The notes below the pieces were generated by a model, which saw nothing but the letters and a program-made list of their open reading frames with translations, had not been told where the DNA came from and did not search any database. From Lentisphaerota bacterium (GTDB lineage Bacteria; Verrucomicrobiota; Kiritimatiellia; CAIQIC01; JAGNIJ01): a stretch of 64,000 nucleotides of DNA. A program made the position numbers and the translations under genes. Of the stretch, positions 61,186-63,162 are shown piece after piece; positions within the stretch are counted from its first letter, which is position 1; every line of letters starts with the position of its first letter. The stretch covers positions 275,544 through 339,543 of the forward strand of contig JBPOJF010000006.1 in NCBI GenBank assembly GCA_052033915.1, read 5' to 3'.

Positions 61186-63162
61186 ATGCAAGACACCGTT
61201 GTAGCGCTGGTCCAAGCCAATACGACTGTGGGGGCGTTGAAGGGCAACGCGGAAAAGATCGTGGGCATGGCGCGCGATGCGGCCAGGGCCGGCGCCTCGA
61301 TCATCGTCTTTCCCGAACTGGCCCTTTCCGGCTATCCTCCGGAAGACTTGGTCCTGAAGAAGCATTTTTTGAACGACTGCATGGAATCCCTCGAGCGGCT
61401 CGCGGGCGAGGTTCCGAAGGACCGGGCGGTCATCGTCGGCGCGCCCCGCTTCGTTGACGGAAAGGCATTCAACGCGGCGGCGATCTTCCACGGCGGAAAG
61501 CGTGTCGCGTTCTACCGCAAGATCGCGCTGCCGAACGACCGCGTGTTCGACGAGAAGCGCGTCTTCGCGCCCGGCGACAAGGCCCTCGTCCTCAACCTCG
61601 GCGGCGCGCGCATCGGAATCCACATCTGCGAGGACTCCTGGATGCCGCCCGAAACGCCGCGCGCCGCGCTCGCGCCGATGGCGTTGGACGCGGTCGTCAA
61701 CCTCTCCGCGTCGCCGTATCATCGCGGCCGGCTCGGCCGGCGAGAAGACGCGCTGGCGCGGACAGCGGCGCTCGTGAAGGCCCCCCTGCTCTGCTGCAAT
61801 CTCGTCGGCGGCCAGGACGAATTGGTCTTTGACGGCGCCAGTTTCGCCGTCGGGCCGGACGGGAACCTGCTGGCGCGCGCCCGGCGGTTCGAGGAGGAAA
61901 TTCTGTACGTCAAGCTGCCCGTCGGCAGGTCGGAAGCCGGCCGCAACGAACCGAGGCCCGCCGACGTCGAAGTCGCGGATCTTCCAACCCTTGGAAAAAA
62001 TCCGCCTGAAATTTCCAACCCTTGGAAACCTTCCGTCGCGCCGGTTTTGGACGACCCGGCCGAGGTGTACTCGGCGCTCAAACTGGGCCTGCGGGACTAC
62101 GTCATTAAAAACGGGTTCCGCAAGGTGGTCGTTGCGCTCAGCGGCGGCCTGGATTCCGCCTTGGTCGCCGCGCTCGCGGCGGACGCATTGGGAAGCCGGC
62201 GCGTCGAAGGCGTCACGATGCCTTCCCAGTTCTCGTCCAAGGAGACGTTGAGCGACGCCGTGCTGACCGCGCGGCGCCTCGGCATCGACTGCAGGACCGT
62301 CCCGATCCGGAACCTGCAGGACACGTATCTGGCCGAACTCTCGCCCCTGTGGGCAGGCCGGGCGCCGGACATCACGGAGGAGAATCTCCAGGCGCGAATC
62401 CGCGGCAACATCGTCATGGCCCTCTCCAACAAGTTCGGCTGGCTGGTGCTGACCACGGGCAACAAGAGCGAGCTGGCCACGGGGTACTGCACGCTGTACG
62501 GCGACATGGCCGGGGGGTTCGCCGTGCTCAAGGATATTCCCAAGACCCTCGTGTTCGAACTCGCCCGGTGGCGCAATCGTCAATCGAAGTCGCCGATCAT
62601 TCCGCCCTCGACTATCGCGCGCCCTCCGTCGGCCGAACTGCGGCCGGACCAGAAGGACAGTGACTCGCTTCCGCCCTACGAACTGCTCGATCCGATTCTC
62701 GAGCGGTACATCGAGCGCGACTGGGGGCCAGAGGAAATCATCGCGGACGGGTTCGATCCCGCGGTCGTCCGGCGCGTGGTCCGGCTGGTGGACTGTAACG
62801 AATACAAGCGCCGGCAGAGCGCGCCGGGCATCACGATCACCCCCAAAGCCTTCGGACGGGACCGCCGTATGCCGATCACCAATCGGTACGGAGACCACCG
62901 CGCCGTCCTCGTCGCCGAGGACAACGTGATTCACCCCTGCCGCCTCCCGCCCACTTTACAGACGGCGGAGGCCGCCGGGTCCACACCCCGTGGCGACCTG
63001 AAAGGAATGGTCGATGCGTACGAACGCGACTTGATCCAGGATGCCCTCAAATCGTCCCGCGGGAATATCGCCGCCGCTGCACGCGCCCTCAGCACCACCC
63101 AGCGCATCCTCGGCTATAAGATCCGGAAGCTCAAAATCGATCCCAAGAAGCATTCTACATAA
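61186..63162 (+). CDS. nadE: Glutamine-dependent NAD+ synthetase (N-terminal CN-hydrolase domain + NAD synthetase domain) with an unusual approximately 90-aa C-terminal extension ending in a Fis-type (HTH_8) helix-turn-helix
   Basis: The nitrilase domain shows [14 protein letters not shown] and ICEDSW. The synthetase domain shows [16 protein letters not shown], the P-loop SGGxDS, and ...ITNRYGD, the usual C-terminus. It then continues without a stop through [10 protein letters not shown]...[46 protein letters not shown]. Confidence 0.8.
   Translation: [658 protein letters not shown]
61982..62027. repeat. Two identical 15-bp palindromes TTCCAACCCTTGGAA (61982-61996 and 62013-62027), 31 bp apart, embedded in frame in the inter-domain linker of nadE
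   Basis: Read directly. They encode LPTLGK and ISNPWKP in different codon phases. The same motif pair recurs at 21726-21771. Confidence 0.6.

Follow-up and report, generated by a model that had tools for sequence, protein, structure and literature searches.

Why should an NAD+ synthase end in a DNA-binding domain? The question was raised by a 658-amino-acid open reading frame in the 64-kb stretch of DNA analyzed here (hereafter the window), in which a complete glutamine-dependent NadE (residues 1–571) is continued by 87 residues ending in a Fis-type HTH_8 motif. The evidence described below points to a chimera generated by a real genomic deletion, and we regard it as likely that the chimera is a young, neutral passenger, the scar of a gene loss.

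Pfam recognized three domains in the product, CN_hydrolase (residues 6–251), NAD_synthase (residues 295–544) and HTH_8 (PF02954, residues 613–649), the latter with 34.5 bits versus a gathering score of 22 (E-value 1.7e-8). The NCBIfam NAD+ synthase model NF010588 scored 711 bits, for a cut-off of 479, and spanned residues 3–570 only. The nadE part lacks its own stop codon and the variable last residues (about 10 in the closest relative, locus L084), and is otherwise complete; it is 92.3% identical in nucleotides and 90% in amino acids to L084 nadE. Invariant columns in the alignment of orthologs included E44, K112 and C148, and the SGGxDS motif S319-G320-G321-x-D323-S324. Based on motif and spacing, E44, K112 and C148 were taken as the nitrilase-type Glu-Lys-Cys triad of the window NadE; the residues of the NadE catalytic triad are named in PMC6946656. 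At the inferred start of the YRE loop, a position derived by spacing from the catalytic Lys and not by alignment, Asp replaces a near-invariant Tyr (Y118D). NadE proteins usually end right after an ITNxY/F motif, and the window protein has 87 residues more. Five orthologs end 1–13 residues past ITNxY; in two solved chains, 5kha and 4f4h, the C-terminus lies 3–5 residues past the equivalent point. Since orthologs and solved chains stop near ITNxY, residues 572–658 are extra in the window NadE, in agreement with the C-terminal addition of about 90 residues ending in HTH_8 that an earlier note on this DNA had described. Coordinates are collected in the table.

Features of the fusion locus in the window and of the corresponding locus in the closest relative, L084
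Feature	Position	Strand	Remarks
Window
glnN, type III glutamine synthetase, upstream neighbour	58858–61035	+	Pfam GSIII_N, Gln-synt_C, Gln-synt_C-ter
Fusion ORF (nadE + activator tail)	61186–63162	+	658 aa
nadE-derived part	61186–62898	+	aa 1–571; NF010588; Pfam CN_hydrolase and NAD_synthase
Deletion junction, delta-1	62898/62899	+	nadE codon 571 joined to activator codon 429 (L084 numbering)
Remnant of NifA-type sigma-54 activator gene	62899–63162	+	aa 572–658 and stop codon
7-bp hairpin GTCCTCGtcgcCGAGGAC	62905–62922	+	arms GTCCTCG and CGAGGAC, loop tcgc; encodes VLVAED; -16.5 kcal/mol
HTH_8 (Fis-type helix-turn-helix)	63022–63132	+	aa 613–649; PF02954, 34.5 bits
Scar of delta-2	63163–63194	+	about 1.95 kb of L084 absent; breakpoint alignment
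Porin-like outer-membrane gene (Gcw_chp/MipA-like), downstream neighbour	63287–64000, cut by window end	+	Pfam match
L084
sigma-54 promoter TGGCACGCCCGTTGCT	4402
amtB	4484–5851
glnK	5870–6211

The source of the extra residues became apparent from the nadE loci of related organisms. In all eight Kiritimatiellia/PVC relatives recovered (L002–L006 and L083–L085), nadE was directly followed by an intact activator gene, encoding 517–524 amino acids where the gene was complete, and in four of them (L002, L003, L006 and L084) the nadE stop and the activator start overlap as ATGA. In amino acids, the window tail was 79–83% identical to the final 87 residues of the intact activators of L004, L083 and L084, and it was collinear with the L084 activator DNA at 85% identity. 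In every comparison homology began exactly at residue 572. By these alignments, the tail descends from the C-terminus of the gene for a sigma-54-dependent enhancer-binding protein (bEBP) and is no extension of NadE itself. The L084 activator contains GAF, Sigma54_activat, AAA_lid_14 and HTH_8 domains and scored 538 bits with the NifA model TIGR01817 (cut-off 529). Only the end of AAA_lid_14, the linker and the Fis-type DNA-binding domain are left in the window: tblastn matches of the L084 activator were confined to its residues 429–515, and Pfam gave no match to PF00158, the AAA+ sigma-54 interaction domain with the GAFTGA loop, in the window protein. Judging from this domain content, the tail cannot activate sigma-54, because the AAA+ core and the GAFTGA loop are gone. 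The proposal of the earlier note, that nadE was fused to what is left of a degraded sigma-54 activator, was therefore upheld by the alignment of the tail with the last residues of the syntenic activators. The ancestor was a NifA-type GAF activator rather than the NtrC-like receiver protein envisaged there, and the fusion traces to a 1316-bp deletion relative to L084, not to a lost stop codon or terminator. Alignment with orthologous nadE loci did reveal a separate gene after nadE, this being a full activator gene and not a small one.

In L084 the gene order is glnN-nadE-activator-[sigma-54 promoter]-amtB-glnK-porin. The promoter lies between activator and amtB in both L084 and L083, and a GG-N10-GC element occupies the corresponding position in L005. 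As the more distant L005 has the same arrangement, the order bEBP-amtB-glnK is ancestral. The position of the genes suggests that the activator controlled amtB-glnK. In the 64-kb window, no activator, amtB, glnK or sigma-54 promoter was found elsewhere, and none of the sites upstream of glnN or at any other place resembled a sigma-54 promoter. A link between the HTH and the palindrome TTCCAA-N3-TTGGAA was not found either, this sequence being absent upstream of the sigma-54 promoter in L084, L083 and L005 and also from several activator-carrying loci. Dimeric NadE(Gln) has been tied to PII and nitrogen signalling, and linkage of nadE to PII has been reported (PMC7196632); the nitrogen-gene neighbourhood of the window nadE agrees with this linkage.

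Comparison with L084 located two deletions. By blastn, window 61169–62899 corresponded to L084 955–2685 and window 62899–63162 to L084 4001–4264; at this first junction (delta-1) 1316 bp are absent and two reading frames are fused, with microhomology of at most 1–2 nt at the breakpoints. Lost in the second deletion (delta-2) were the AT-rich upstream region with the sigma-54 promoter, the whole of amtB and almost all of glnK, alignment being resumed at window 63195–64000 (L084 6221–7055); its right breakpoint is approximate, at the glnK stop codon or within about 30 bp. On either side the loci are collinear, glnN being 91.6% identical in nucleotides to L084 1–722, and the porin 81% identical in amino acids to L084 6276–7100 and 86% in nucleotides. 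Synonymous divergence of the collinear flanks from L084 was uniform, with dS of 0.18–0.25. A look-up with glnN retrieved the only independent assembly found, Logan contig SRR34217546_20553, which is 100% identical over window 52858–61885 and breaks off at a GC-rich palindrome, some 1 kb short of the junction. Since this sole independent contig stops before it, support for the junction comes from one assembly.

Proteins spanning the junction were sought in four collections. A word-indexed search of 5.8 billion proteins gave none among the best 120 of 779 matches, and 1.84 billion representatives, scanned exhaustively with HMMER, gave none among the best 150. Nor did any occur among nadE loci taken from 185,000 species genomes (best 80 of 586) or among metagenome loci (best 80 of 539). 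Two candidates for spanning fusions, L100 and L129, were rejected, one being a spurious alignment and the other a NadE with a stop codon. Within the databases searched, the NadE-HTH architecture thus appears to be unique to the window sequence, and the idea that NadE families of related taxa routinely carry such a tail was not borne out.

The sequence around the junction was compared with its ancestral counterpart. The 7-bp hairpin reported in the earlier note was present, with a folding energy of -16.5 kcal/mol and a z-score of -3.0. An origin in a nadE 3' UTR did not hold. The hairpin lies 6 nt into the stretch derived from the activator, an equivalent hairpin (-16.8 kcal/mol) occurs in the activator gene of L084, which is intact, and no terminator-like site was reported at 62905–62922; a role as nadE 3'-UTR or intrinsic terminator was consequently discarded. 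Read against the L084 gene, the hairpin is an ancestral by-product of lid codons (VLVAEG). Likewise, the segment VLVAEDN had been likened to the first strand of a receiver domain, a reading abandoned because it aligns to a conserved motif at the C-terminal end of AAA_lid_14 in 177 homologues and the ancestor carries a GAF domain, not a receiver. Neither Pfam nor NCBIfam gave a receiver match in the window protein. Around the tail, nothing was found in the remaining frames, on the opposite strand or by a search for RNA families.

The tail is well preserved. AlphaFold2 modelled residues 604–658 with pLDDT above 90 and the preceding 40 residues with low confidence. In Foldseek searches the tail matched the DNA-binding domain of NtrC4 (3e7l, 4fth; TM 0.8, rmsd 0.8 Å over 50 residues), and further matches were Fis and 2m8g, with E-values that were weak because the domain is small; by sequence, the tail matched nothing in the PDB. 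The tail is thus predicted to adopt the DNA-binding fold of sigma-54 activators and Fis, a long helix followed by a helix-turn-helix. In NtrC4 and Fis structures, the long helix before the helix-turn-helix forms the dimer interface. No stop codons interrupt the tail, and changes of highly conserved columns amounted to none of 13 in the HTH and one of 14 in the lid and linker. Polarised changes on the window branch of the tail were 11 nonsynonymous and 15 synonymous, versus a neutral expectation of roughly 3:1. Pairwise values at first made the tail appear faster (dS 0.47 versus 0.18 for nadE; 12 versus 5 lineage-specific amino-acid changes). Polarised counts showed that the window branch is longer everywhere (25 versus 5 for the nadE C-terminus, 26 versus 12 for the tail), and the tail region outpaces nadE also in the intact L084 gene; window-specific acceleration or relaxed selection on the tail was therefore dropped. 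Evolution of the tail was no slower than in intact genes. The lack of decay implies that either the deletion is recent or the domain has been retained.

Before a biological reading is accepted, the junction itself has to be considered. If nadE and activator are really separate in the organism, the junction could stem from a chimeric read, from collapse during assembly or from a minority structural variant. One assembly carries the junction, the Logan contig ending before it; the 658-residue product and two guessed contig-edge partial products have no exact-sequence record in the gene-position collection; and in a metagenome contig (L001) a gene of this activator family has a different internal deletion and a frameshift, a possible sign that such genes assemble poorly. 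Repeat collapse by an assembler is nevertheless improbable, because the breakpoints share at most 1–2 nt, and in the absence of a repeat a k-mer or overlap assembler needs reads spanning the junction. Besides, the second, independent deletion of the linked amtB-glnK block fits biological loss of a module, and the flanks are collinear with uniform dS. An artefact is on these grounds unlikely, and the deletion is presumably present in the organism. Far less credible still, to the point of being negligible, is a small, independent Fis-like gene that would start at the Met of GMVDAYERD and be masked by a frameshift or a lost nadE stop, as the earlier note had also considered. An AGGA immediately precedes the ATG, and Fis is a stand-alone protein of about 98 residues with the same fold. 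However, the AGGA abuts the ATG with no spacer, most relatives have Ile, Leu or Ala in place of this Met, activator homology runs continuously from residue 572, 30 residues upstream of the Met, the HTH of every relative is the C-terminus of a full-length activator, and 1316 bp are missing rather than one base.

A further reading gives the tail a selected function. In such a trigger enzyme, nitrogen or NAD genes would be repressed or tuned through the Fis-type domain in response to the state of NadE and, if NadE is dimeric, two Fis-type domains would bind former activator sites or others. The tail is in frame and undecayed, the conserved HTH columns are unchanged, the 11:15 ratio of nonsynonymous to synonymous changes lies below neutral expectation, the long pre-HTH helix is retained and confidently modelled, and two flanking deletions spared the tail. 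In addition, the closest solved relatives (5kha, 4f4h and 3n05) are NadE(Gln) proteins of 549–590 residues, and dimeric NadE enzymes fall in a size range of roughly 550–590 residues (PMC7196632). By contrast, the architecture occurs once only across the databases searched, giving no sign of persistence; an in-frame junction has a chance of 1 in 3; a recent deletion explains the lack of decay equally well; the local target region of the activator was itself deleted; and the tail evolves no more slowly than in intact genes. A selected trigger enzyme is accordingly unlikely. It would take a bolder guess to suppose that the deletion has just made a working bifunctional NadE, perhaps dimeric, that still recognizes the enhancer sites of the lost activator and serves nitrogen or NAD genes as passive repressor or metabolic sensor; if true, this would be a trigger enzyme caught in nature at an early stage of its emergence, much as Fis has been proposed to derive from the C-terminal domain of NtrC. 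An undecayed tail, in frame, with its own stop and lying between two deletions, sits uneasily with a scar, and selection for a new function would give the same picture.

The preferred reading, a gene-loss scar whose tail probably has no selected role, can be outlined as follows. The ancestor would have carried nadE directly followed by a NifA-type sigma-54 activator gene (GAF sensor, AAA+ ATPase, Fis-type HTH), lying, as in the closest relatives, just upstream of a sigma-54 promoter driving amtB-glnK. A 1316-bp deletion with almost no microhomology would then have taken the nadE stop codon together with the variable codons before it (in L084 about 10), and codons 1–428 of the activator. Chance restoration of the reading frame would let translation of NadE run through the last 87 codons of the activator to its stop. 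The other deletion would have taken the presumed target of the activator, namely upstream region, sigma-54 promoter, amtB and glnK. The product would be an ordinary NadE, followed by a probably flexible linker of about 30–40 residues (the lid remnant), a stretch of low confidence in the model, and a folded Fis-type domain.

The locus provides a well-resolved case in which a deletion between adjacent genes created a new combination of enzyme and DNA-binding domain, with the intact ancestral state kept in a relative about 92% identical. It also indicates that one Kiritimatiellia lineage lost a whole regulatory module, comprising a sigma-54 activator, its promoter, amtB and glnK. Conservation of the nadE-activator-amtB-glnK cluster lends further weight to the connection of NadE(Gln) with PII nitrogen signalling that has been reported. 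For annotation, the protein is better described as a NadE with a regulator remnant than as a new class of DNA-binding NadE. If the tail were functional, it would offer a rare snapshot of a bifunctional regulator at birth.

NadR, BirA and PutA are trigger enzymes combining enzymatic and DNA-binding functions, NadR acting in NAD metabolism. By analogy, the fusion may be likened to them in joining a metabolic enzyme and a DNA-binding domain in one polypeptide. Their architectures are, however, conserved across many genera with demonstrated operators, whereas the fusion is a deletion-made singleton. The fold predicted for the tail is shared by Fis and by isolated DNA-binding domains from sigma-54 activators (NtrC4 3e7l and 4fth; 2m8g); Fis is free-standing, whereas the tail is tethered to an enzyme and has probably not been retained by selection. 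Fis was reportedly proposed by Morett and Bork in 1998 to descend from the C-terminal domain of NtrC, and such a descent would be a precedent for the domain surviving without its ATPase. NifA-type enhancer-binding proteins, encoded beside nadE in the relatives, share with the tail the end of the lid, the linker and the DNA-binding domain, and differ in having the GAF domain and AAA+ core that were deleted in the window; in the relatives the activator gene adjoins amtB-glnK, not nif genes. Finally, the window NadE resembles the NadE(Gln) class of about 550–590 residues (NF010588; 5kha, 4f4h, 3n05) in both domains, the E-K-C triad and SGGxDS; members of this class end within 13 residues of ITNxY, whereas the window protein carries a foreign extension of 87.

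The nadE reading frame of the window runs on for ca. 87 residues beyond the usual end of NadE, and this extension, with the HTH_8 motif pointed out in an earlier note (matched in Pfam), is real, since five orthologous proteins terminate 1–13 residues past the ITNxY motif while in two solved structures, 5kha and 4f4h, the chain stops 3–5 residues past the equivalent point. The NCBIfam NAD+ synthase equivalog model NF010588 (711 bits; cut-off 479) covered residues 3–570 only, and residues past 570 gave weak NCBIfam matches to numerous sigma-54 activators (AtoC, NorR, PrdR and NifA among them), always at their extreme C-terminal ends. 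A query of 138 residues spanning the junction retrieved hundreds of proteins, each matching residues 1–51 (NadE) or 52–138 (tail), and none matching both. Tail matches, some annotated as Kiritimatiellia, were C-termini of sigma-54-interacting regulators with Sigma54_activat, AAA_lid_14 and HTH_8 domains, with identities of up to 76%. The junction segment VLVAEDN, previously likened to a receiver-domain strand, is where the AAA+ lid domain ends, because homologous regulators read likewise there.

Relatives retain separate genes. In L002, the contig with the closest NadE fragment found with the junction query, nadE overlaps the start of a GAF-AAA+ protein through an ATGA. In all four of the closest genome loci (L003–L006; labelled Kiritimatiellae, "Verrucomicrobia" and PVC MAGs) nadE (575–585 aa) is directly followed by the gene for this regulator, of 517–524 aa in L003–L005 and interrupted at the contig end in L006. 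A metagenome scan yielded a closer relative, L084 (ERZ1645192 NODE-2451), with protein identities of 90% for NadE (residues 1–571) and 82% for the tail (residues 572–658). Its DNA is collinear with the window in four blocks (see table), and its gene order is glnN, nadE, activator (515 aa), amtB (455 aa), glnK (113 aa) and porin. The activator contains GAF, Sigma54_activat, AAA_lid_14 and HTH_8 domains and passes the NifA model TIGR01817 (538 bits; cut-off 529).

Coordinates of the fusion ORF and related features (L084, close relative with the intact arrangement; L083, outgroup; L004 and L005, genome loci of relatives)
Feature	Window	Strand	Relatives	Details
Fusion ORF	61186..63162	+		658 aa
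CN_hydrolase	aa 6-251 of fusion ORF			Pfam
NAD_synthase	aa 295-544 of fusion ORF			Pfam
HTH_8	aa 613-649 of fusion ORF			Pfam, 34.5 bits (gathering score 22)
glnN end	60332-61050		L084 1-722	91.6% nucleotide identity
nadE	61169-62899		L084 955-2685	92.3% nucleotide identity
Tail	62899-63162		L084 4001-4264	85.2% nucleotide identity
Porin gene	63195-64000		L084 6221-7055	85.5% nucleotide identity
Activator-amtB intergenic promoter region			L084 4265-4420; L083 2067-2225; L005 about 8313-8470
Palindrome pair	21726-21740, 21757-21771			divergent intergenic region (21.7 kb), amine oxidase gene / epimerase gene
Palindrome pair	61982-61996, 62013-62027		L084 1768 and 1799 (identical)	nadE inter-domain linker, encodes ..LPTLGK..ISNPWK..
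Other palindromes			L005 2511, 3350/3382, 6729, 11308/11340; L004 1808

Relative to L084, two deletions separate the arrangements. In L084 the NadE-matching and tail-matching parts lie 1316 bp apart; the first deletion removed these 1316 bp, from nadE codon 572 through activator codon 428, with at most 1–2 nt in common at the breakpoints. As the two genes lie in different frames and the loss is 2 mod 3, the last 87 activator codons entered the nadE frame. The earlier suggestion that nadE had been fused to a sigma-54 activator remnant was thus correct in substance but not in mechanism (loss of a stop codon or terminator) or domain details. The second deletion, of ca. 1.95 kb, starts a few bases past the activator stop codon, ends at the glnK stop or within ca. 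30 bp of it, and took an AT-rich region, a sigma-54 promoter, amtB and glnK. No other activator, amtB, glnK or sigma-54 promoter was found within the 64-kb window.

In L084 the space from the activator stop to amtB contains the textbook promoter TGGCACGCCCGTTGCT; it is kept in L083, and L005 has a GG-N10-GC element at the equivalent place. In these relatives an AT-rich stretch in which ATGTAA/TACAT motifs recur precedes the promoter. The order activator-amtB-glnK is common to L084 and L083 and also to L005, a more distant relative, and is for this reason ancestral for the group. With a conserved promoter between activator gene and amtB-glnK, these non-diazotrophic Kiritimatiellia may have a NifA-type activator that senses through its GAF domain and serves ammonium uptake specifically. 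A member of the same activator family in the metagenome contig L001 (ENA ERZ28617189 scaffold_79702, 1-1005) carries a different internal deletion (residues 351–412, L084 numbering) and a frameshift that leave an 89-aa ORF, reflecting either independent decay of the regulator or an assembly problem.

The hairpin GTCCTCGtcgcCGAGGAC was correctly placed by the earlier note at 62905-62922, beginning 6 nt inside the activator-derived part, but it does not descend from a nadE terminator: the intact L084 activator gene carries a counterpart, GTCCTCGtcgcCGAGGGC, of equal folding stability (−16.8 versus −16.5 kcal/mol in the window), and no terminator-like site was called there. It is a by-product of the V-L-V-A-E-G/D codons. 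In the fusion and tail region, nothing turned up in the remaining frames, on the opposite strand or in Rfam. A 26-nt direct similarity (85%) between 62947-62972 (tail, PPTLQTAEA) and 63341-63366 (end of the porin-like signal peptide, PATLQAAEA) is probably due to chance; both protein motifs also occur in L084.

Neither stop codons nor frameshifts interrupt the tail. Compared with 177 homologous C-termini, it was changed at one of 14 highly conserved lid/linker columns (H15R, with Arg in none of the 177) and at none of 13 HTH columns, which is inside the range of intact proteins. Against L084, dN/dS of the tail was 0.19 and dS 0.47, higher than for nadE (0.18), glnN (0.21) and the porin gene (0.25). 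When changes were polarised with outgroups (including L083), the window branch showed 26 in the tail (15 synonymous, 11 nonsynonymous) and 25 in the nadE C-terminus, versus 12 (8 and 4) and 5 on the L084 branch. The window lineage thus has ca. 2–5 times more substitutions in both regions, a sign that either this lineage evolves faster in general or L084 lies near the common ancestor; the tail region is faster than nadE even within the intact L084 gene, and the counts revealed no window-specific acceleration of the tail. Neutral change would be expected to give about 3:1; the nonsynonymous-to-synonymous ratio of 11:15 departs widely from this, and the tail has therefore been under purifying selection for most of the window branch. 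Either the deletion is recent or the domain is still being retained. An AlphaFold2 model (86-sequence alignment) gave pLDDT above 90 for residues 604–658, a long helix followed by a helix-turn-helix, and low confidence for the preceding 40 residues (NadE end and lid remnant). Foldseek matched it to 2m8g (sigma-54 activator DNA-binding domains), Fis and the NtrC4 DNA-binding domain (rmsd 0.8 Å over 50 residues). The fusion product carries a tethered Fis-type DNA-binding domain.

The ortholog alignment showed that E44, K112 and C148, aligned with catalytic residues, and the SGGxDS motif are conserved, and the fusion product should be a working NadE. At residues 118–119 (61537-61542) a Tyr present in 108 of 109 homologues (LPNYGVFDEK) is replaced (Y118D), and Logan contig L163 has the same sequence there. 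Judged by spacing from the catalytic Lys, not by alignment, position 118 may correspond to Tyr127 of the Mycobacterium tuberculosis enzyme, the residue that opens the regulatory 'YRE loop', which is in contact with the glutaminase ligand (PMC6946656). Since human NadE has Glu and Burkholderia thailandensis 4f4h Thr at the loop start, the replacement does not necessarily abolish activity, but it could change how the enzyme uses glutamine or ammonia.

The palindrome TTCCAA-N3-TTGGAA, suggested earlier as a possible target of the HTH, has four exact copies in the window (0.06 expected), in tandem pairs of tTTCCAA-N3-TTGGAAa spaced 31 bp (31–32 bp overall). One copy in L005 lies immediately upstream of the activator's ribosome-binding site. 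No link to the HTH emerged: in L084, L083 and L005 the region upstream of the sigma-54 promoter, the expected place of activator sites, contains none, and several activator-bearing loci have none. The palindrome probably serves a different, dimeric DNA-binding protein and is not associated with sigma-54 promoters.

An exact-sequence look-up had no record of the 658-aa product, nor of two partial products whose ends were guessed. Logan contig SRR34217546_20553, 100% identical to window 52858-61885, ends ca. 1 kb short of the junction at a GC-rich palindrome inside nadE (61863-61890, GAACCTGCTGGCGCGCGCCCGGCGGTTC), which probably caused the break. That the junction is an artefact or minority variant is unlikely: the breakpoints lack a repeat, a separate second deletion takes the functionally linked amtB-glnK block, and the flanks are collinear and uniformly diverged from L084. 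No NadE-HTH_8 protein was found among the best 120 of 779 hits of a word-indexed protein search, the nadE loci from genomes (best 80 of 586) and from metagenomes (best 80 of 539), or the best 150 hits of an exhaustive scan of 1.84 billion representatives, where a protein fused from both halves would have outscored all listed hits; in these searches the architecture is a singleton.

Bacterial enhancer-binding proteins need their AAA+ core to remodel the sigma-54 holoenzyme; lacking it, the tail cannot do so, and its presumed local target is gone from the window. That the fusion works as a "trigger enzyme", in analogy to NadR, BirA or PutA, is quite improbable. We consider the fusion most likely a gene-loss scar: the window lineage would have lost the activator/amtB/glnK module, and nadE would have taken up the activator remnant as a passenger. 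The nitrogen-gene neighbourhood of nadE agrees with the published nadE-PII linkage and PII-NadE(Gln) interaction (PMC7196632). A deletion-generated chimeric ORF is a known kind of event, here unusually well documented because a close relative keeps the intact ancestral state.
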